A stretch of 63,876 nt of DNA, counting the filler, from Limisphaerales bacterium (GTDB taxonomy: Bacteria; Verrucomicrobiota; Verrucomicrobiia; Limisphaerales; SIBE01): the NCBI GenBank assembly GCA_044225505.1. It is 9 parts of 9 records of this genome, joined end to end, with 100 filler letters (N's around TTAATTAATTAA, not from the genome) between each part and the next. Parts side by side here need not be neighbours in the genome. Positions count along the whole stretch, not along the records: positions 44,632 to 51,752 come from JBGAIN010000280.1; 8 more parts are not named here. One strand, written 5' to 3'. The translations under genes were made by a program, and so were the position numbers. Every line of letters begins with the position of its first letter. The stretch's first letter is position 1. The notes beneath the pieces were generated by a model, which was not told the origin of the DNA, did not search any database, and was given only the letters and a program-made list of their open reading frames with translations. Of the stretch, positions 7,500 through 58,935 are shown piece after piece.

Positions 7500-7599
7500 N
7501 NNNNNNNNNNNNNNNNNNNNNNNNNNNNNNNNNNNNNNNNNNNTTAATTAATTAANNNNNNNNNNNNNNNNNNNNNNNNNNNNNNNNNNNNNNNNNNNN
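7500..7599. other. Artificial contig spacer (N44-TTAATTAATTAA-N44). The same spacer recurs at 14919-15018, 22274-22373, 29708-29807, 36948-37047, 44532-44631, 51753-51852 and 58836-58935
   Basis: Identical 100-bp N-padded linker with stops in all six frames; ORFs are cut at each junction. Confidence 0.99.
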
Positions 7600-14895: not shown

Positions 14896-15229
14896 GCTGT
14901 TTTCAGCGGCAGGACAAGNNNNNNNNNNNNNNNNNNNNNNNNNNNNNNNNNNNNNNNNNNNNTTAATTAATTAANNNNNNNNNNNNNNNNNNNNNNNNNN
15001 NNNNNNNNNNNNNNNNNNAACCCAAACGCCCTTTCTCGCCGCACTCAGCCGCCCCTCCGGGGCTTGGGCCCTCTCACTGGAGCACCCGGCGCTAAAGCGA
15101 CCGGGCTTCTCTCATTCTGTCCCTTCCGGGACTGAATAGAATTACCGAATGGCATTAGAATAAATTCCGCGCACCGATCATCGCTAAAGCACGACGAAAC
15201 ATCATTGATTCTCGTCGGACCACAGGAAG

Positions 15230-22273: not shown

Positions 22274-22373
22274 NNNNNNNNNNNNNNNNNNNNNNNNNNN
22301 NNNNNNNNNNNNNNNNNTTAATTAATTAANNNNNNNNNNNNNNNNNNNNNNNNNNNNNNNNNNNNNNNNNNNN

Positions 22374-29707: not shown

Positions 29708-29807
29708 NNNNNNNNNNNNNNNNNNNNNNNNNNNNNNNNNNNNNNNNNNNNTTAATTAATTAANNNNNNNNNNNNNNNNNNNNNNNNNNNNNNNNNNNNN
29801 NNNNNNN

Positions 29808-36947: not shown

Positions 36948-37673
36948 NNNNNNNNNNNNNNNNNNNNNNNNNNNNNNNNNNNNNNNNNNNNTTAATTAAT
37001 TAANNNNNNNNNNNNNNNNNNNNNNNNNNNNNNNNNNNNNNNNNNNNTCTGTCCGATGTAAGCACGGGCGTCATACCAAACACCTGAAAACGGATCGTTT
37101 CTAGCGCAAGTGATTGCCTAGCAGGAGTTGGCTGCGGTTGACAAATTGTTTACTAACCCTCGGTCATCCCAGTCATTCCAGGTAGAACGCGGCGAAAGTA
37201 AGCCCGGTCGCTTTAGGGTCATGGGGTGGCCAGTTGAAGAAGACCCAAGCCCGCGAGGGAGCGGATATGCCTTATCCAGAACCGATACCGATGCCGATGC
37301 CGACCCCGACCGCGACGTGGAAGGGACATTAGTGTGGGTGCGGGGTCGGACCTGAGTAAGAGTCTCACCTGTTGGCGGTTGTGCATTTCGATATCGTTAA
37401 CACCCGGGCTTAGCGGCTGATTTGCTCCCATCGAAGTTGGCTAGAAGAGGTAGGCCTATCCCGTGGAGATCTCCTCCTGTGCCAAGAGCCTACAGGAATT
37501 TGCCGTGGTTCGGGATCCGGTGTCGCGCTTGTTTCAGCCCCGCCGCTGGAGTGCTTTCTGGAAGATGTTCGCTCCACATCGGATAGCGAATTCATCTCCA
37601 ATGCCGGAAGGGCCGCTCTGGTTTTTCCGTCGGTCAGTCCCTAATATGGGATTCTGCGGGTTAGCGTTGGTCC

Positions 37674-44531: not shown

Positions 44532-44631
44532 NNNNNNNNNNNNNNNNNNNNNNNNNNNNNNNNNNNNNNNNNNNNTTAATTAATTAANNNNNNNNNNNNN
44601 NNNNNNNNNNNNNNNNNNNNNNNNNNNNNNN

Positions 44632-44865
44632 AAGCTTGCCTTTGTACTTCACCGTCACCCGCTCCGACTTCTTGCCGAGGAAAACGCCGAAACCGCTCAC
44701 ATACAGCTGGGCGCCGCTTTCTGTCTTCAGCAGGCTGACGACCTCGTTGTCGCGAATTAGCGCCGGTTCTGCAAACGCCAATCGCAACTGCTCCGGCTCG
44801 GGCGCCTCATAGCTCTCGGTCACCCAGTTCCACTGTCTCGGCCAAACCTGCGCCAAAGCCGCCAT
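44632..44865 (-). CDS. cas1: CRISPR-associated Cas1 N-terminus, 3'-truncated by contig end
   Basis: LYVSGFGVFLGKKSERVTVK resembles the Cas1 N-terminal strands; RBS GGAGG; directly downstream of cas3. Confidence 0.7.
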
Positions 44866-44883
44866 AGCACCTCCCGCCTCTTG

Positions 44884-47208
44884 CTAGAGTCCGTCTCCCT
44901 CCCCGAGCTTCCGGATCTCCAAGCCGGAATCAGGCGAGTAGAATCGATCCACAATCGCCACATTGTCCTTCCACTCCGCCCCATCGCGCATGCTCCTCAG
45001 TTGACGCCCGCTCACCGGAATAGTGAGGGCGCTTGCTCGCGCGGGTTCTTGCTTCAACAAGTACTCATACTCTTTCTGGAGTGCACGAGGAAGAACTTCG
45101 TAGCCGTCGAACATGTCCTTAAACATCTGTCGAAGATGGTCGCTCGTCCCAACAAACGGCAGACAGTTGCTCAGCACCTCGGACTCGAATCGAGTCATCG
45201 CCGTGCGTAACGTGGTCTCCCATTCTGTGCCCATCTCGCTGTCATAGATTCGGTCGATCATTCCTTGGAGGGCGAGCTCATCAAGTCCAGTTCCGTTCCA
45301 ATGCTCCAACTCATCAATCGCAAAGCGAACCAGTCGCGCGTCATACACGGGTGAGCCATTGGGGATTACCCTACTGACGAATACCGGACGAAGGCCACGC
45401 TTGTTAGCACCTGCTTGACGGTTCACCCTACCGAATCTCTGAAACAGCGCTTCCAAGGGCGCGGGATCCGAAAATAGCGCGTCGAAATCGACATTGAGGC
45501 TTACCTCGACCACCTGAGTGGCGACTAACACGACTGCCTCCCTGGCAGCCTGATCCACGCCCCTCGCTTCAGCGAGTCTCTGCTCCTTTCGTGAACGATC
45601 TTGCCCATTGAAACGGCTGTGCAACAGTTCGACTGGCAGGGTGAGCCGCTCCTTAAGCTTCCGATAAACCTGTTTGGCGCGTTCCACTGTGGTGGCCACA
45701 ATCAACGGTGATCCGCCGGACTTTACGAACTGGACAATGCGCTCAATACTTGACTCGCTCACCAATTCCTCATCGACTAAATGAACTTCATGGCGGCGAA
45801 AGGACTCGCGCAAGCTGTCTTCGGCCTCCACGATCTGCATGCCCTGAAACTGTTCGGCCAGCAAGCTCGATAGGCGCCTTGGAAATGTAGCCGACATGAA
45901 GAAAAACTTCGCACCGTGATCCTTGGCAAGATGACGACAAAGAGCCAGTATCCGCCCCAGCCGCCCAGCATCATAGGCATGAATTTCATCGAGCACAAAG
46001 CACGACCCAGCGGCGTCCGTCCAAATCGCCTCCTGCCCACGCAGACCAAAAGCTGCGCCGAGCCAAGGGTAAGGACTCATAACTCGAATTGGCAGGGCAT
46101 GGAGCCGAGCCAAGCTTCGAGCGTTCTTGGCAATGCGTTGAGCATCTGCTTCCGCGTACCCTTTGTCCAGAGCCTGGGCGTATAGGGCTTGCAGGCTTCG
46201 AGAATGATGCAATGCCACCAACTCTCTGTTTGCGCCAAACGTTCGGTCAAGGCGCGTTTTCATGGCGTTCATGCTGGCTTGGAACGGAAGGCTGTAAAAG
46301 AGATTCGCCTCGTAGCTGCTATGACGTCGTTGGTTCTGATACCAAAGCAGCGCGGCCTCGGTCTTTCCACTCCCGGTCGGGGCAACCAACAAGCCGTGCC
46401 CCACCACTTCCGACGCGGCCCTTTGGTGGTAATACCAACTGTTTGCAGGAGGAAAAGAACTTTGGCTCATCGCTGCATTGAGGTCGCTTAGCCCCAGATA
46501 ACTTAAATCTTGTGCGGCCGATGCGGAATGGTCCGCGATCATCAATGCCCCTCGCAGAAAACGCCCTTCCATGAACGAAGTATCGGCAGCCCCCAAGCTA
46601 TCGACGTACTCTCGGCATTCCGTCGCTGTATCCTCTATCGACGTCCAAGCTTCACCTTCTGGCCACGGTCTCCGCGCGCCCTCCGACCAATTCTTCGGGA
46701 ACGGTCCGGCCGTCAGTTCGACGGCTGGCCAAATCAGTTCCGTTAGAAGTCTCTGAGCGATTGAAAGCCAATTGCTACCCAATTCCTTCTTCGTTCCCGG
46801 TGTCGGACCGCCGCAACACTCGCCGAACGCTCTGTTCCACTCCTTGTGGTGAGTAAGAATAGCGGCGCCAATGCGCGCCCGATCGGTAACGTCAGGCACA
46901 ATCCAACGGACCATTGCGACGGAGAACACCTCGTGACGCAGACCGAAACGTCTGGCGTGTCCATGCACCACAGCCTGAAACCCCGGACAGCACTTTCCGA
47001 GGTCGTGTAACGTAGCAGCCAGCAGCAAACGGCTCCAGAACCGATCGTCACCGATCAGAAGGCCGAGATCGATCGTCCTTTTTCGCAACGCCACAATTGA
47101 TTTAATGACGTCGAGTGTATGGCTAGTTAGTCTCTGCCCATCTGGGTCATCGCCGGTCGGCGACTTCGCCCAAATTGATTCGTCGAGTCTAGCCGTCTCC
47201 AAATCCAT
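44884..47208 (-). CDS. cas3: CRISPR-associated HD nuclease/helicase Cas3
   Basis: WAKS...SHTLDV, LHDLGK, IADHSAS, APTGSGKT, DEIH, MSAT, HSRF, ATQVVEVSLN and QRFGRVNR; likely start MDLETARL overlaps the cas5 end. Confidence 0.96.
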   Translation of the reverse strand: MDLETARLDESIWAKSPTGDDPDGQRLTSHTLDVIKSIVALRKRTIDLGLLIGDDRFWSRLLLAATLHDLGKCCPGFQAVVHGHARRFGLRHEVFSVAMVRWIVPDVTDRARIGAAILTHHKEWNRAFGECCGGPTPGTKKELGSNWLSIAQRLLTELIWPAVELTAGPFPKNWSEGARRPWPEGEAWTSIEDTATECREYVDSLGAADTSFMEGRFLRGALMIADHSASAAQDLSYLGLSDLNAAMSQSSFPPANSWYYHQRAASEVVGHGLLVAPTGSGKTEAALLWYQNQRRHSSYEANLFYSLPFQASMNAMKTRLDRTFGANRELVALHHSRSLQALYAQALDKGYAEADAQRIAKNARSLARLHALPIRVMSPYPWLGAAFGLRGQEAIWTDAAGSCFVLDEIHAYDAGRLGRILALCRHLAKDHGAKFFFMSATFPRRLSSLLAEQFQGMQIVEAEDSLRESFRRHEVHLVDEELVSESSIERIVQFVKSGGSPLIVATTVERAKQVYRKLKERLTLPVELLHSRFNGQDRSRKEQRLAEARGVDQAAREAVVLVATQVVEVSLNVDFDALFSDPAPLEALFQRFGRVNRQAGANKRGLRPVFVSRVIPNGSPVYDARLVRFAIDELEHWNGTGLDELALQGMIDRIYDSEMGTEWETTLRTAMTRFESEVLSNCLPFVGTSDHLRQMFKDMFDGYEVLPRALQKEYEYLLKQEPARASALTIPVSGRQLRSMRDGAEWKDNVAIVDRFYSPDSGLEIRKLGEGDGL

Positions 47209-47944
47209 GAAAGACGACACCTCGCTTGACTCCATCTCGAACTTTAGTGTCTGGATCGACGAGCCAATACTTCTGAGTCTCGTCCAGGTACTTCCAACTC
47301 GGCGCAATCGAGCCTTCGGAGCTGCCGCAGTAAAGCCGTTCACGCAACACGATGTACCGAGCAAGCTCTGCCTTCCGCTCGGGCGGAGGTGAGATGAAAC
47401 GTGGCATCGTAACCGTAGTCCCCTGGGCAGTAAATGGCCGCATCGAGAAAGGTAGAAGTGTACCTTGGAGGTACGCACCGGCCTCCGCCTTCAGCTCTAT
47501 CGTGTCGACACTGATCACGTCCGCGAGATCCTGCGACCGCCCCAACACCACGCAGAATGCCGGCCTGCGGAACGCATCCGCCCAATCTACACGATCAAGA
47601 TAGAGAGTCAGCCTAGCCCGAAAATGAAAGTCTCGGTACTGCGGCTGAACATTGCCTTCAATGTTCTTTGGAATCTTCTCACCTTGGTCTTTGAAGCTCC
47701 CACCTTGAGCATAAACGATATGCTGATGTTCTAGGTCGCTCGATCGTGCCTCCGATTCGAAATGATATCCGAACCGGAAACTTTCTCGATTGGGAATTTC
47801 ACCCAGCGCACTGGCGACATGCCCAAAGATCGTCGAGGGCGGCGGCATCTCGAATGTAGGTTGCCGAGCAATCAGCAAATGAGGGTGCCGAAACGAGGCT
47901 ACCCTAGCTTCTACCACGACACGTAAGACCGCTTGGTCAGGCAT
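47189..47944 (-). CDS. cas5: Type I-B Cas5
   Basis: ASFRHPH...QPTFEMPPPSTIFGHVASALG and VLGRSQDL. Confidence 0.94.
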   Translation of the reverse strand: MPDQAVLRVVVEARVASFRHPHLLIARQPTFEMPPPSTIFGHVASALGEIPNRESFRFGYHFESEARSSDLEHQHIVYAQGGSFKDQGEKIPKNIEGNVQPQYRDFHFRARLTLYLDRVDWADAFRRPAFCVVLGRSQDLADVISVDTIELKAEAGAYLQGTLLPFSMRPFTAQGTTVTMPRFISPPPERKAELARYIVLRERLYCGSSEGSIAPSWKYLDETQKYWLVDPDTKVRDGVKRGVVFHGFGDG

Positions 47945-49010
47945 ACCAGTCGGCGTTTGCAGACTTGCTCAACTCTGCGGCCATCGCCTCAAATTGCTCG
48001 ACCGGGTGAGCGAGAACAACCTTCACCGGACCGGAATAACTCGCTATCGCGCGCTCAAGTCTTCCTCGTTCTTCGTCGAGGAACCCCTTTTGCCATCCAA
48101 TCAGAACGGGTGAGAGAAAATCCTGCTCGTACACCGACAGTATCTCCGCGAACGCGTCTATATGAAACGACGTACTTCGATCCCTGGCGGCTGTAAAGAT
48201 TCGAGAAAACGGATTATTGCCGTGACGTGTAACCGCTAATACGTTCACCGCTGGCGTGATATCCGTATAGTGCAACGCTTGTTTAGCTCCGCCACTCCAA
48301 AATTTGAATGCCCGCAGGAGGGTGCTTACCCGCTCCTGTCGCTGATCCAGCGGTAATCGAAACGCCTGCTGATTACGAAGCTGCACAACTTCCAGACCAA
48401 TGGCTTGAGCATGCTCACGGCGATGAGTATCCAAGTTCCGGTAACCGACCCGCTCTCCGTCAAAAAAGGTCCCTGCCGCGGACAGATCTAGCGAGAGCAT
48501 CCCTGATAGATGCGCTCGGTAGAACTCATGTTCAAAAGGTACCGGATCTCCTTCATGTCGGGTCATGGTCCCAAAGTCACTCGTAATAGCAGCAGGAGCC
48601 ACGGAAACGAATGTACTCACCCGAAAAGGAGAGATTCTTGTGATATCACGATCCTTCTCGAGCGGAGCCGGAGGAGTCCCCTTCGCTTCTTTCTTCGATT
48701 CCTTCTTCGAGGGAGCTCGCATATAGCCAAACAAGTCGTCGTCCCAATAGCTAATTGGCTCGGCGTCGGTATAGGCGACTTTGTTCTCACGATGCACGGG
48801 CGCGAACTTCCAATCCGAGCCGTTAGTCTGCAGCGTCATTCTTAACCAATAGCGGACCGCCTGTGCGGACACATATGCATAGACGCCTCCACCAGTCCGA
48901 ATTTTCTTTACTGGAACTGTGTTATCCGTAGCCGCGCTATCCTCTGCCTTACCGTTGTTGAGCGCGGAGGCAGGGCAATCAAGCATGATCAATCCGGTCA
49001 AAAATGGCAC
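47937..49010 (-). CDS. cas7: Type I-B Cas7 (Cst2/DevR family)
   Basis: ASALNNG, YVSAQAVRYWLR, DDDLFGYMRA, RISPFRVS and GGAKQALHYTD. Confidence 0.94.
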   Translation of the reverse strand: MPFLTGLIMLDCPASALNNGKAEDSAATDNTVPVKKIRTGGGVYAYVSAQAVRYWLRMTLQTNGSDWKFAPVHRENKVAYTDAEPISYWDDDLFGYMRAPSKKESKKEAKGTPPAPLEKDRDITRISPFRVSTFVSVAPAAITSDFGTMTRHEGDPVPFEHEFYRAHLSGMLSLDLSAAGTFFDGERVGYRNLDTHRREHAQAIGLEVVQLRNQQAFRLPLDQRQERVSTLLRAFKFWSGGAKQALHYTDITPAVNVLAVTRHGNNPFSRIFTAARDRSTSFHIDAFAEILSVYEQDFLSPVLIGWQKGFLDEERGRLERAIASYSGPVKVVLAHPVEQFEAMAAELSKSANADWYA

Positions 49011-50599
49011 TAGGCCACCTCACTTTCTTTCTCTGACTCGTCTTCCTCCGATTCCTCAGGCAGCACATCTGCATCCATCGCCTTTAAATCGATCAGTTTT
49101 TCTACCACCCGCAGGGAAATCAGTGAACGAACAACTCGCCAATCGCCGACTCGTAAATTGTCATCAATCGCAAAAACTTCAATGTAGTTCGCCCAGCTAA
49201 TCAAAAGCTTCCCACCTTGGGCAACTCTCGATTGCTCTTTTGCCAAGATTGCATGGAGATCCTCCGGCCTTCTTGCCATCAGAATCCGTCGCAGTAGGCG
49301 CTTGTTTCCAGCTGCGATCTCGACCGCAAGCAGATCGCTGAAAGCCTTGATTCGGTCTAACCTGCTACTATTCATTCCCAGCACCTCTATCAGGAAAAGC
49401 TCTGCAATTAGCCACGCACCCTCCCTAATCTGCCCTGTTCTTATCCGGTGTGTGTCTTCACCGCGAAGAATGTCTCCGGCGGCACTATGCATTTTTCTCC
49501 GACTACCCAAAAGATGATATGAGACAAATGCGTTTGCCGCGTCGTCATTAATGCTGCCCTCTTCCGGAAACACTGCCATGAGATCCTGAAGCACGTGATT
49601 TTTCGACGTTCCGGGCTGCTGAAGTGAGCGTCTCCCCGAAGAGGAAGATTCGACCTCGGCGGTGGGCTTGCGATCCTTCTCTTTCTTTCGCTCGGATTCC
49701 CAGGACTTCGCCACAAGCCGTTGCCACGGCTGCCGGTATTCGCCACGCATAGCGTTATTAAGGAACGTGACCAGCGAGCTCGGAATGCCGAATACCCTGA
49801 GCGATGGTCCTTGCCCAGAGTTACTCATCCAAAGAGCCTCGACCGACGCATTAATGCGAGTGAACGACGGAAAGGCAGTCAGCAAAATATCTTGCAAATC
49901 GGAGAGGAGAAGCGTAGCCGGCGCTTTGGCATCAGCATACTTGGGGGAGCCCTTTTGCTTGTCATAAGCCGATAGCGCTCTCTCCAATACGTCATCGGCA
50001 TTTGGCAGCTGATTGGAACGCGCCAAATTGAAGTATCGTTGGTTGTCACGCCAATAGCGCGATGCAAAACTGAGCGTGAGAGTTGGCTGGTCCGAATGAA
50101 CAATCAGCAGTTTTCCCTCGCAACGCCTGCCCGCCAATGGCAAAGTCTGAAGGGCAGTCAAATATGGCCCAGCGATGGCCAGCCCGCCCTGTAAATTCGG
50201 AAAGAAGTTAAACACACCGTCGCCAGTAATCATCGGCATCTGGGATCGGTGAATTATGTGTGTTGCAAGCCCCCCGGAGAACGCACAAGCTAGACCACCA
50301 GCATCTGGGTCGCCGGCATACCGGTGAGCATAGAGCACCCGCCGAACGTACTTCTCGCGGGTCGCAGCTTTCTTTTCCGCTTGGGCTTCTTTCCCAGCAG
50401 GCTGCACGAACTCCGAGTTCATAAAAACACAACTCAGATAGCTCGAGTAGTATGCGTCGAAATAACGCCGCGTCATTTCTTCGGCCGCCTGATCGAGATC
50501 CTCTAGCGTTAGCAACGAAGGGCTCGTTCTCTGGGTAATCGCGCATAATCCCGCGATGCCTACATCGACAAGAGGGTTTCCGGTCCAGTCAAGTAACAC
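49010..50599 (-). CDS. cas8b: Type I-B large subunit Cas8b (Cst1-like)
   Basis: WTGNPLVDVGIA N-terminus, PMITG..VFNFF and MSNSGQGP; precedes cas7; GTG start. Confidence 0.85.
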   Translation of the reverse strand: MLLDWTGNPLVDVGIAGLCAITQRTSPSLLTLEDLDQAAEEMTRRYFDAYYSSYLSCVFMNSEFVQPAGKEAQAEKKAATREKYVRRVLYAHRYAGDPDAGGLACAFSGGLATHIIHRSQMPMITGDGVFNFFPNLQGGLAIAGPYLTALQTLPLAGRRCEGKLLIVHSDQPTLTLSFASRYWRDNQRYFNLARSNQLPNADDVLERALSAYDKQKGSPKYADAKAPATLLLSDLQDILLTAFPSFTRINASVEALWMSNSGQGPSLRVFGIPSSLVTFLNNAMRGEYRQPWQRLVAKSWESERKKEKDRKPTAEVESSSSGRRSLQQPGTSKNHVLQDLMAVFPEEGSINDDAANAFVSYHLLGSRRKMHSAAGDILRGEDTHRIRTGQIREGAWLIAELFLIEVLGMNSSRLDRIKAFSDLLAVEIAAGNKRLLRRILMARRPEDLHAILAKEQSRVAQGGKLLISWANYIEVFAIDDNLRVGDWRVVRSLISLRVVEKLIDLKAMDADVLPEESEEDESEKESEVA

Positions 50600-50699
50600 G
50601 AATTACAATTTGCCTTAATGTATCTCAATTTCAGACGGCGTGGAATACAATTTCACGTCAAGCTAAAAAAAGATTCTCCTCAGTACAGTATCCGTGGGT

Positions 50700-50777
50700 G
50701 TCCCCTACATATCGGGGCAGTCGATGACTCTTGAATACAGATTTCAGTCCCCTTCATTTCGGGTATACTCTGATTGC
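50700..50777 (-). CRISPR. Mini-CRISPR (crRNA-like RNA gene, CreA/CreR-like): one 37-nt repeat, short guide, one truncated degenerate repeat
   Basis: On the minus strand, repeat 1 is GCAATCAGAGTATACCCGAAATGAAGGGGACTGAAAT (50777-50741) and the guide is CTGTATTCAAGAGTCATCGACTG. The repeat 2 core CCCCGATATGTAGGGGAC (50717-50700) is 15/17 identical to the repeat-1 hairpin. Confidence 0.85.
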
Positions 50778-50779
50778 CT

Positions 50780-50871
50780 CGGAGAGAGAGGGATTCGAAC
50801 CCTCGGTTCGTGGTACGAGCACGAACGACCGCTTTGGAGGCAGCTGCATTAAACCACTCTGCCATCTCTCC
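50780..50871 (-). tRNA. Class II tRNA with serine-type body and CCA (Trp) anticodon; CCA tail not encoded
   Basis: GGAGAGA TG GCAGAGTGGTTTAATGC A GCTGC-CTCCAAA-GCGGT C-GTTCGTG-CTCGTAC-CACGAAC-C GAGGG-TTCGAAT-CCCTC TCTCTCC G. It forms a full cloverleaf with a 7-bp variable arm and G73. Confidence 0.92.
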
Positions 50872-50881
50872 GCAGCAACAC

Positions 50882-50911
50882 GGCGGGGCCGCAAGGCCCC
50901 GCCTTAATTTT
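50882..50911. terminator. Strong GC hairpin between the promoter and the tRNA (T-tract only on the + strand)
   Basis: GGCGGGGCC-GCAA-GGCCCCGCC followed by TTAATTTTT on +. Confidence 0.6.
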
Positions 50912-50961
50912 TGCAATGGTCAATCCCTGATGTCAAGATTTATGACTCTTGAATACAGGGG
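50907..50961 (-). promoter_or_regulatory. Sigma70-like promoter of the tRNA/mini-CRISPR unit with adjacent protospacer and PAM-like CCC
   Basis: Minus strand: CCC-CTGTATTCAAGAGTCAT (50958-50942)-AAATC-TTGACA (50936-50931)-18 nt ending TGC-AAAAAT (extended -10-like). Confidence 0.72.
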
Positions 50962-51752
50962 AGTTTTCATTGGAGACTTCCATCCAGCCTTTTCCCCAAA
51001 CCGTCTGCCGCCCCACACCTACCCATCGTCCAGCCTCCAGCCACGCAAGAAATGCACCATACTCGCCCTCATAGTCCACCCATCCAACGAACCCGCCGAT
51101 CTGGTGACGTTGCTTCGTCTTCGAGCTCTTCCTCTCCACGCTGGACCAAGAAACCGTTCCTCCGACGATGCGCAGGCGGTCGGCTGCTTGTATCAGGTCC
51201 TGATAGTCCGCAGTTGGGCGGCCGCCCTGGTACATCGTGCAAAGATTTCCAACGCGCATTGACAACCGTCGAAACAGGGTACCGAACTCAGGTCGAACTG
51301 CCACTTCGCCAGACTCTTTGAACTCGGTCGGAGAAAGAAAATGGACTCGCAGTAACCCGCTGGACGCCAGGGCACTTGCAAGCGGGATCGCAATTCCCGG
51401 TACAGCATTCCCGGCAAGCACTCCATCGGCGTAGACCACAGCCCCTTCGTTCTGGTTGCGGTCGAGCGTGGTGATTCGCGTCAGTAGAACTTTTGCCCGC
51501 CTTGGCCCCACACCTTCTGTGGCCATCTGACGAAACGCTAGGACGAAATAAGCGAACAGATCAGGCTTCCCCGAGAATAGATGCAGGTCGAAGTAGAACG
51601 CGCCCCCCGAAGGAATGGTGTCGCCCCGAAAGCCCGTTGGTCGAAACACAAACGCCCGCGGCGGATCTGCCAAACCGCTGGGGCCACCCTCCCACCTTGG
51701 CTCAAAGACCTGCGCATACGGGCATTCATGTGCCCCGGAGCATTGCGCGGGC
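50933..51752 (-). CDS. cas6: CRISPR-associated endoribonuclease Cas6, 5'-truncated by contig end
   Basis: CPYAQVFEP...PPRAFVFRP, FLSPTEFK, GGFVGWVDYEG and the G-rich loop VGVGRQTVWGKG. Confidence 0.92.
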
Positions 51753-51852
51753 NNNNNNNNNNNNNNNNNNNNNNNNNNNNNNNNNNNNNNNNNNNNTTAA
51801 TTAATTAANNNNNNNNNNNNNNNNNNNNNNNNNNNNNNNNNNNNNNNNNNNN

Positions 51853-52971
51853 CACGCGGACATGCGCAAGGGATTTCATCCCGACTGGAATACCTACATT
51901 TTCAATTACGGTCGGCATGAAGTCCGCAGTTTTCTGCTGAGCAATGCGGTTTTCTGGCTCGATAAATATCATGTGGACGGCCTGCGGGTCGACGCGGTCG
52001 CTTCCATGCTCTACCTCGATTACTCACGCCAGCCAGGTCAGTGGATTCCCAATCAGCACGGCGGGCGCGAGAACCTGGAGGCGATCGGTTTTCTTCGGCA
52101 GTTCAACGACACGGTTAATCGCGAATATCCGGGCGTCCAGACCTACGCCGAAGAATCGACAGCGTGGCCTCAGGTGTCGAGACCTACTCACCTGGGTGGT
52201 TTGGGCTTCAGCTTCAAGTGGGACATGGGCTGGATGCACGACACGCTGCACTATTTTGCCTGTGATCCAATCCATCGCAAACACCATCACAGACGCCTGA
52301 CTTTTCGTAGCTTGTATGCCTTTGCCGAGAATTTTGTCCTGCCGCTCTCCCACGATGAGGTCGTGTTCGGCAAAGGCTCCTTGATTTCCAGAATGCCTGG
52401 GGATGAATGGCAGAAATTTGCCAATCTTCGCCTCCTGCTGGCCTATCAGTGGGCGCAGCCTGGCAAGAAGCTTTTGTTTATGGGTGGCGAATTTGGTCAA
52501 TGGAACGAATGGTATCATGAAGCCAGCCTCGACTGGCACGTTGTGAGAAATAACAACCGTCACAACGGACTTCAAAAACTGGTGGGCCATCTGAACTGGC
52601 TTTATAGGCAGGAACTCGCCCTGCACGAGGGTGATGCCTCACCCCCTGCTTTTGAATGGGTGGACGCGGACGATGCCGATCAGAGCACGCTCAGTTTTTT
52701 GCGCAAGTCGGAGCGCACAGGCGACGTAATCCTTACGGTATTCAACTTCACTCCGGTGCCGCGGCACAATGCTAGGATTGGTGTGCCGCGAGACGGCTTC
52801 TGGCGAGAAATCCTAAACTCGGACGCCATGGAGTATGGCGGCAGCGGTCAGGGCAATCAAGGTGGCACGGAGGCAGCACCTTTCGGCTGGCACTCCAAAT
52901 CCCATTCAGTCGCTATCACCTTGCCACCGCTGGCAGCGGTGTTTTTCAAGCACAACGAACCAAAGCGATAA
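51853..52971 (+). CDS. glgB: 1,4-alpha-glucan branching enzyme, 5'-truncated
   Basis: [44 protein letters not shown] and NFTPVPR. Confidence 0.97.
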
Positions 52972-58745: not shown

Positions 58746-58935
58746 ACCCGCAAGCCGTTCGTTCGCGGCTTCGGTGGGCGGATTCCCGTGCCGAGGTTGG
58801 TCCGCAAGCAACCGTCTCGTTCTATTCAACGCTTGNNNNNNNNNNNNNNNNNNNNNNNNNNNNNNNNNNNNNNNNNNNNTTAATTAATTAANNNNNNNNN
58901 NNNNNNNNNNNNNNNNNNNNNNNNNNNNNNNNNNN

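Follow-up and report, generated by a model that had tools for sequence, protein, structure and literature searches.

What does a CRISPR effector locus do with a guide that matches a site beside a promoter of its own, and why does that promoter face a transfer RNA (tRNA) gene? We address these questions in a Limisphaerales bacterium, on a stretch of 63,876 bases (hereafter the window) in which a degenerate two-repeat mini-CRISPR lies beside a set of cas genes. All relevant features are on the minus strand, where the order is cas6, a CCC-flanked target of 17 nucleotides (nt), a sigma-70-like promoter, a hairpin, a tRNA, the degenerate two-repeat mini-CRISPR, and cas8b-cas7-cas5-cas3. From the sequence, the guide is very probably a Cascade-directing regulatory RNA of the CreA/CreR type. 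Whether the whole forms a self-repressing module of the CreTA/CreR type within a type I-B (Cst1) locus, with the cargo tRNA acting as a CRISPR-repressed, mistranslating CreT toxin, we regard as evenly balanced.

The original prediction took this element for a self-targeting mini-CRISPR with a truncated guide suited to repression rather than cleavage. Its anatomical claims hold on the minus-strand sequence: repeat 1 ends in GGGG-ACTGAAAT, 23 nt separate it from a CCCC-N8-GGGG hairpin, guide positions 1-17 match 50958-50942 exactly, and CCC stands ahead of the target whereas repeat-derived AAT stands ahead of the guide. The parts of the guide and its target, including the protospacer-adjacent motif (PAM), are as follows.

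50741..50776, minus strand: degenerate repeat 1 (psiR1), ending GGGG-ACTGAAAT at 50741, where ACTGAAAT is the presumed 8-nt 5' handle
50718..50740, minus strand: guide (pseudo-spacer), 23 nt, with positions 1-17 (50740-50724) equal to the target
50700..50717, minus strand: degenerate repeat 2 (psiR2), a CCCC-N8-GGGG hairpin (50717-50702) plus AC, with a 3' tail unlike the repeat
50942..50958, minus strand: target, 17 nt, identical to guide positions 1-17; a 23-nt protospacer would reach 50936
50959..50961, minus strand: CCC PAM on the protospacer's 5' side, non-target strand
50907..50936, minus strand: promoter-like site, TTGACA and AAAAAT spaced by 18 nt, the -10 box preceded by TG; 10 of 12 consensus matches
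50665..50671, minus strand: run of seven T after repeat 2, seen in the sequence; the terminator scan made no call

The 17-mer is present exactly twice in the window with up to two mismatches allowed, and none of 100 dinucleotide shuffles matched. Identity between guide and target begins at the first base after the repeat, and the sequences flanking the two copies are unrelated, which argues against plain duplication. Beyond 17 nt, guide and protospacer mismatch at positions 18, 19 and 21-23, and position 23 of the protospacer is the first base of the TTGACA box. The promoter-like site is the sole one in 50400-51200 on either strand (800 bases scanned). Repeat 2 has 15 of 17 positions in common with the hairpin core of repeat 1. 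Two traits of CreA are thus present at this locus: an ectopic degenerate repeat pair flanking a spacer-like sequence, between cas6 and cas8b, and a PAM-flanked, PAM-proximal partial complementarity at a promoter (CCC plus 17 nt, ending at the -35 box). The processed RNA is predicted to be about 47 nt long (8 + 23 + 16).

Guides and targets across related loci

The host's own array is missing from the assembly, and the comparison of the repeats with those of an array was therefore made by proxy, through relatives. Alignment of Cas8b homologues gave 60 related loci in public genomes; it replaced a single-protein Cas8b locus search, which had produced 37 pattern matches, none of them confirmed. 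In several of the 60 loci a repeat-like element, CCC-N8-GGGGACTGAAA, lies a short way upstream of cas8b. The 3' half of this element ends the repeats of real arrays (19 to 43 copies, period 73-76) in three genomes with a related cas8b (G440, G443 and G444), and the same end is also found in metagenome arrays.

We examined the 23 nt after each repeat-like motif for a nearby match pairing from position 1, ignoring every sixth base, covering twelve motifs in 63 sources, with 200 shuffled guides as a control. The guides of the window and of loci L019, L069, L076 and L079 have a nearby target that none of the 200 shuffled guides equalled, and the guides of L012 and L034 have weaker nearby targets (0.12). 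There was no significant target for L018, L078 or three true-array spacers. Guides differ between the related loci, each matching a site beside its own promoter (six mini-arrays besides the window), and CCN precedes the target in seven of seven pairs, as CCC in five, CCT in one and CCA in one. Because L012/L034 and L019/L069 are related pairs, these represent about five independent cases. Derivation of the PAM from protospacers was also attempted with one spacer each of the arrays L073, L075 and L077 against viral contigs, and none of the three matched.

Type I Cascade flips out the bases at every sixth position of the guided strand pairing, so that they stay unpaired. Across the five loci with drifted guides, 14 of the 17 mismatches in positions 1-18 fall at 6, 12 or 18; mismatches confined mostly to every sixth base are the pattern expected from selection for Cascade binding. 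Additionally, in the five plus-strand cases that include downstream sequence (the window, L076, L079, L012 and L034), a TTGACA box follows immediately after the target. The repeat alignment, the related mini-arrays, the uniform CCN, the sixth-position mismatches and the promoter-abutting target together support the view, put forward in the original prediction, that the product is a regulatory, non-cleaving RNA resembling a CRISPR RNA (crRNA).

It had also been suggested that transcription might continue into the cas genes. The window has a 100-nt gap with the seven-T run between repeat 2 and cas8b, and no further promoter was called ahead of cas8b. In L079, cas8b starts 18 nt past repeat 2; L019 and L069 have the order promoter, two-repeat mini-array and, 24-29 nt on, cas8b (in L019, 29 nt before the true start); and in L076 repeat 2 is followed after 7 nt by a helicase gene with a weak likeness to Cas3. 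Judged by this spacing, CreR-like transcription through the mini-CRISPR into the window's cas8b operon is plausible, and the related systems L019, L069 and L079 probably autorepress their effector. The base circuit of the related loci looks like published CreR autorepression.

A serine-type tRNA behind the targeted promoter

The interpretation offered in the original prediction leaves out the tRNA that the targeted promoter would drive. This gene lies between the target and the mini-CRISPR, and repeat 1 begins three bases after its end.

50780..50871, minus strand: class II tRNA, serine-type in body, its anticodon CCA at 50835-50837; called tRNA-Trp(cca) by ARAGORN and scoring 54.8 bits with the Rfam tRNA model (gathering score 29)
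50882..50903, minus strand: leader hairpin of 9 base pairs (bp), all G:C, -22.9 kcal/mol, z -3.8; terminator-like on the plus strand
L076:337-385 (minus strand) and L079:2390-2436: equivalent hairpins, about -25 kcal/mol, z -5 to -6

The window tRNA folds into a canonical cloverleaf with a 7-bp variable arm. Bacterial tRNA-Ser identity is marked by a long variable arm, the discriminator G73 and an acceptor that starts G1-G2-A3, and the window tRNA has the variable arm, G73 and the acceptor start. Its acceptor (GGAGAGA/TCTCTCC) and G73 are the same as those of two host tRNA-Ser genes, and it is 61-67% identical to four host tRNA-Ser genes versus 43-47% to the nearest host Tyr and Leu tRNAs. A serine anticodon (NGA or GCU) is absent, CCA standing in its place in the window and UAU in L076 and L079. 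A canonical 76-nt tRNA-Trp is present elsewhere in the host genome.

Scanning 241 million metagenome records for a T-arm with a repeat end within the next 12-42 nt yielded nine loci, three of them with the tRNA and mini-array layout (L076, L079 and L078). The other six were noise, namely four ordinary arrays with a T-arm-like word in a spacer (two of these, L073 and L074, are identical in sequence) and a tRNA cluster present in two copies. Both L076 and L079 have the order cas6 (PF10040), CCC or CCT target, TTGACA, hairpin, class II tRNA, mini-array and cas gene, and their tRNAs (Rfam 59.5 and 38.9 bits) have a GGAGAG acceptor start, G73, no encoded CCA and the anticodon UAU. Cas6 proteins of the window, L076 and L079 are 36-47% identical pairwise. 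The three tRNAs are 55-62% identical with the cloverleaf kept, and 9 of 25 pairs show compensatory changes. All three serine-type cargo tRNAs are without a serine anticodon (CCA, UAU, UAU), while acceptor positions 1-6 and G73 are invariant. Loss of the serine anticodon in three of three, with acceptor identity and fold retained, is hard to explain if the tRNA is a structural passenger.

The consensus fold of these three tRNAs has 7 acceptor and 5 T-stem pairs, and so differs from the 8/4 or 9/3 arrangement of allo-tRNAs. An 8-bp acceptor stem formed through C-1:G73 was considered and dropped, as 23 of 46 host tRNAs likewise have a complementary -1 base. The third locus from the scan, L078 (413-620), holds a tRNA with anticodon UAG and a 9/4 arrangement, which is Sec-like (selenocysteine) or allo-like and scores best as tRNA-Sec (43.6 bits). 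After it come a single CRISPR repeat end, 22 nt of spacer-like sequence and a hairpin resembling a terminator, with a weak Cas3-HD match on one side and an unknown open reading frame on the other; no target was found on its 1.3-kb contig.

A stable hairpin stands between the promoter and the tRNA 5' end in all three tRNA-bearing modules (z -3.8 to -5.9). It reads as an opposite-strand terminator in the window and L076, and has a same-strand T tail in L079. This leader hairpin could serve as an insulator or attenuator, or could slow ribonuclease P. On the plus strand of 50780-50836, an Rfam Plastid-psbl-rps4 match (49.5 bits against 68) is an echo of the T-arm and acceptor of the tRNA and not a separate element. 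Elsewhere in the genome, two ARAGORN calls look false: an 87-nt 'tRNA-Trp(cca)' around a long perfect hairpin (C311:116032-116118) and a 102-nt 'tRNA-Ser(cga)' with many G:U pairs (C154:33138-33239).

Other related loci depart from the tRNA-bearing plan. In L012 (990-1062) and the matching part of L034 (acidobacterial), a 73-nt long-stem hairpin (-31.9 kcal/mol, z -3.7) replaces the tRNA; the two loci differ by a 1-nt indel, which speaks against a coding role, and the interval has no Rfam family match. Locus L013 (3375-3503) keeps a CCC target-like site, the promoter and repeat 2, without repeat 1 or cargo, and its Cas6 and the one in L079 share 92% identity. The locus resembles a module that has undergone a deletion. 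Cas6 of L079 is 89-92% identical to those of L012 and L013, whereas the Cas8 proteins of L079 and L012 share only 24% identity, and L079 carries a tRNA as cargo, not a hairpin. From these sequences, the cas6-cas8 junction seems to be a point of module exchange.

The anatomy of the locus, the identity of guide and target, the PAM, the family-wide pattern and the intact tRNA fold suggest a course of events that we propose from transcription and Cas6 processing through Cascade binding to serine charging and toxicity. The promoter at the cas6 end would transcribe the leader hairpin, the serine-type tRNA(CCA) and the mini-CRISPR, and would probably continue into cas8b-cas7-cas5-cas3. Cutting by Cas6 at both degenerate repeats would release the crRNA-like RNA of about 47 nt, made up of the 8-nt handle, the 23-nt guide and a hairpin. 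Cascade carrying this RNA would recognize the CCC PAM and pair over 17 nt, leaving the R-loop incomplete; such pairing would be too short to license Cas3 and would leave a roadblock that touches the -35 box and holds the promoter down. Along with the tRNA, the blockade would repress the guide and probably the cas operon as well. If Cascade or Cas6 were lost or inhibited, by mutation or an anti-CRISPR, the promoter would be freed and the tRNA would accumulate, be charged with serine and place Ser at UGG codons, with proteome damage and a stop in growth as the expected outcome.

Several published observations make the last steps conceivable. Seryl-tRNA synthetase recognizes its tRNA via the variable arm and not the anticodon, and anticodon variants of tRNA-Ser remain serine-charged, many of them being lethal in yeast (PMC6125640). 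As the enzyme ignores the anticodon and relies on the variable arm, the window tRNA should bring serine to UGG codons. In Acidobacteria, serine-type tRNAs whose anticodons are not those of serine, most often UAU, occur near toxin-antitoxin genes, and two of six tested serine-type tRNA variants killed E. coli (PMC5389517). That the CRISPR effector restrains a serine-charged tRNA reading UGG (AUA in the relatives), as a suicide or addiction toxin released on loss of Cascade or Cas6, is a tentative reading to which we give slightly less than an even chance. There may also be a second lock. The CCA end is missing from the tRNA gene, and the 5' part of repeat 1 serves as the tRNA's 3' trailer, so that Cas6 sitting on the repeat 1 hairpin may block 3' maturation of the tRNA as well.

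Locus context and competing explanations

The source assembly is a 9.0-Mb draft genome of 342 contigs, 95% complete. The window consists of nine unrelated contigs from it (C66, C67, C68, C69, C70, C72, C73, C75 and C127) joined by N runs at 7500-7599, 14919-15018, 22274-22373, 29708-29807, 36948-37047, 44532-44631, 51753-51852 and 58836-58935. Genes on either side of an N run are therefore not neighbours, and the true context of the module is contig C73 only (44632-51752, 7.1 kb), whose boundaries lie immediately past cas3 at one end and immediately ahead of cas6 at the other. A glgB fragment at 51862-52971 belongs to the next contig and is not the module's neighbour. The cas genes of C73 are as follows.

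50933..51673, minus strand: cas6, Pfam PF10040 CRISPR_Cas6, E 5.3e-16, 59.5 bits; the PAM and target lie within its last codons
49010..50599, minus strand: cas8b (Cst1 type), NCBIfam TIGR01908, 19.1 bits against a cut-off of 19.4 (borderline)
47937..49010, minus strand: cas7 (Cst2/DevR), TIGR02585, 168.4 bits
47189..47944, minus strand: cas5, TIGR02593, 38.6 bits; TIGR01895 Cas5b, 77.9 bits, below its cut-off
44884..47478, minus strand: cas3 (HD plus helicase), TIGR01587, 245.3 bits, and TIGR01596, 65.1 bits

The cas8b product has 166 homologues, many named Cst1/Cas8b1, and by these matches the gene set of C73 is a type I-B (Cst1) effector cluster. Among 40 related genomes, nothing matched the mini-CRISPR or the target, and only ordinary tRNA-Ser genes were matched by the tRNA (71-79% identity).

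A rival account keeps the regulatory guide and dispenses with the toxin. According to this account the locus is CreR only: the mini-CRISPR autoregulates the promoter feeding itself and the cas8b operon, and the tRNA is a harmless passenger, whether a processing or stabilizing element, an uncharged relic or a usable extra Trp tRNA. We consider this possible but on balance doubtful. A cargo-free circuit does exist in L019 and L069, where promoter, mini-array and cas8b follow one another with cas8b within 30 nt, in L012 and L034 only the long hairpin lies between promoter and mini-array, and the 18-nt spacing in L079 implies that the tRNA and the cas genes share a transcript. Additionally, CreR-type autorepression has been published for I-B, I-E and V-A systems (bioRxiv 10.1101/2023.03.10.532045), and mini-arrays are reported in about 19% of bacterial I-B loci (bioRxiv 10.1101/2023.03.03.530964). 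However, a structural tRNA would have no reason to lose its serine anticodon, and all three cargo tRNAs are non-serine, with an invariant acceptor and covarying stems. Release of the guide by Cas6 needs no tRNA, and the host already has its canonical tRNA-Trp.

Two further accounts deny the guide a regulatory role. The locus could be a decayed array remnant, or an assembly chimera formed through shared tRNA sequence, with the 17-nt identity functionless. In keeping with this, the assembly contains neither an array nor cas1, repeat 2 is barely recognizable, and independent Logan contigs of sequencing run X1 stop at 50765 and restart at 50815, in the 3' half of the tRNA (among the pieces listed, 8 of 23), where depth is inflated because of shared tRNA words; among the runs listed, X1 is the one DNA run that holds the stretch, and no RNA run does. 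But guide and target sit on opposite sides of this break at equal depth (5.2 and 5.4), cas genes flank both, and the same order recurs in two other, independent metagenome assemblies, from which we judge a chimera unlikely. The identity also starts at guide position 1, with a CCN PAM, and abuts a promoter, and guide and target co-vary in the related loci, making this account as a whole very improbable. The other account, an ordinary self-targeting spacer that leads to Cas3 cleavage of the cas locus (autoimmunity and loss of the system), can point to the correct PAM and a perfect PAM-proximal match; yet pairing ends after 17 nt, with the mismatches at 18, 19 and 21-23, and the handle and hairpin are separated by 23 nt versus about 50 in real arrays of period 73-76. 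The partial-match design moreover recurs in six other loci, and known CreA/CreR guides pair over 10-15 nt without cleavage (PMC8501985; bioRxiv 10.1101/2023.03.10.532045). We give this last account almost no weight.

The preferred reading, a self-repressing module with a tRNA toxin, has to bear a number of observations that weigh against it. Coverage is 5-6x, with the break in independent contigs described above. The promoter is called from consensus matching, and the promoter scan that called a site in L079 called none in L076. psiR1 aligns end to end with Rfam CRISPR-DR10 (RF01323) at a sub-threshold 17.3 bits against a gathering score of 39, psiR2 has no CRISPR-DR10 match, and the repeat hairpins fold no better than shuffles, though the 4-bp stem of psiR2 appears. 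Scores for CRISPR-DR10 elsewhere are 33.2 bits in L076 and 28.7 in L034, all below 39; these repeats are degenerate, as CreA-type repeats are expected to be. A k-mer spacing search and two motif searches found no CRISPR array of the host's own in the 9.0-Mb assembly, and there was no Cas1 match in it. The lack of a significant target in L078, with its allo-like tRNA beside one repeat, belongs here too. The layout is also rare: of 401 genomes of the phylum, this one alone yielded it, and it turned up in none of 401 genomes of another phylum (that of G440) and in no viral contig of the viral-contig scan; none of the 60 related cas8b loci has a tRNA.

Other difficulties concern the toxin itself. 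The window tRNA has no encoded 3' CCA, unlike all canonical host tRNAs. If its promoter is shared with the cas genes, the tRNA would be made whenever Cascade is, and would have to be tolerated at that level. Tryptophanyl-tRNA synthetase reads the CCA anticodon and G73. The window tRNA might thus be partly or wholly Trp-charged, and harmless.

Relation to known modules and significance

Regulatory mini-arrays and CreTA/CreR are already known, and what is new here is the tRNA that the repressed promoter appears to drive. To our knowledge, the CRISPR-repressed toxins described so far comprise small RNAs with rare codons, a further small RNA and a protein. Full-text searches of the literature turned up no tRNA as a CRISPR-repressed toxin or cargo; supplements may list such loci. 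In the main text of one mini-array survey, tRNA appears only in a reference title (bioRxiv 10.1101/2023.03.03.530964).

The module resembles the haloarchaeal I-B CreTA systems, especially that of Halobacterium hubeiense, whose operon runs promoter, creT, creA, and in which Cas6 makes an 8-nt 5' handle and the guide pairs at positions 1-5 and 7-11 next to the PAM (PMC8501985). Common to both are a degenerate two-repeat mini-CRISPR beside type I-B cas genes, a guide partly complementary to a PAM-flanked promoter site, and the placing of cargo first and guide second, with an 8-nt handle expected here. The window differs in its bacterial host, its Cst1-type system, its PAM (CCN not TTC) and its match of 17 contiguous nt, as opposed to the two short segments of CreTA. 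The known CreT is a small mRNA-like RNA that sequesters a rare tRNA through rare codons, whereas the cargo in the window is a full tRNA with predicted miscoding. With CreR (bioRxiv 10.1101/2023.03.10.532045) and the surveyed mini-arrays (bioRxiv 10.1101/2023.03.03.530964) the locus shares a mini-array within the cas locus whose guide partly matches a cas8-adjacent promoter. In contrast to CreR, which in that work is defined as being without an accompanying toxin, the window has a tRNA between promoter and mini-array, and its mini-array is separated from cas8b by the 100-nt gap with the seven-T run.

The cargo has parallels of its own. Like the allo-tRNAs of Acidobacteria (PMC5389517), it combines serine identity with a non-serine anticodon, and UAU is shared with L076 and L079. 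Allo-tRNAs have 8/4 or 9/3 acceptor and T stems, whereas the window tRNA is canonical 7/5 class II and only that of L078 is allo-like or Sec-like; the word CRISPR does not occur in the main text of the allo-tRNA paper. The engineered anticodon variants of tRNA-Ser (PMC6125640) similarly place a foreign anticodon on a serine body, with predicted misinsertion of Ser, and many of them kill on accumulating. They are laboratory yeast constructs, whereas the window tRNA is a natural gene with predicted control by a CRISPR effector.

The related loci yield a CCN PAM and a Cascade-type every-sixth-base signature for the poorly studied Cst1-type I-B lineage. If the toxin reading is true, poisoning by a complete tRNA that puts Ser at Trp (or Ile) codons would constitute a new toxin principle and would link CRISPR addiction modules to natural mistranslation. 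It would also give a natural function to the serine-type, foreign-anticodon missense-suppressor tRNAs of soil bacteria, and would explain their retention.

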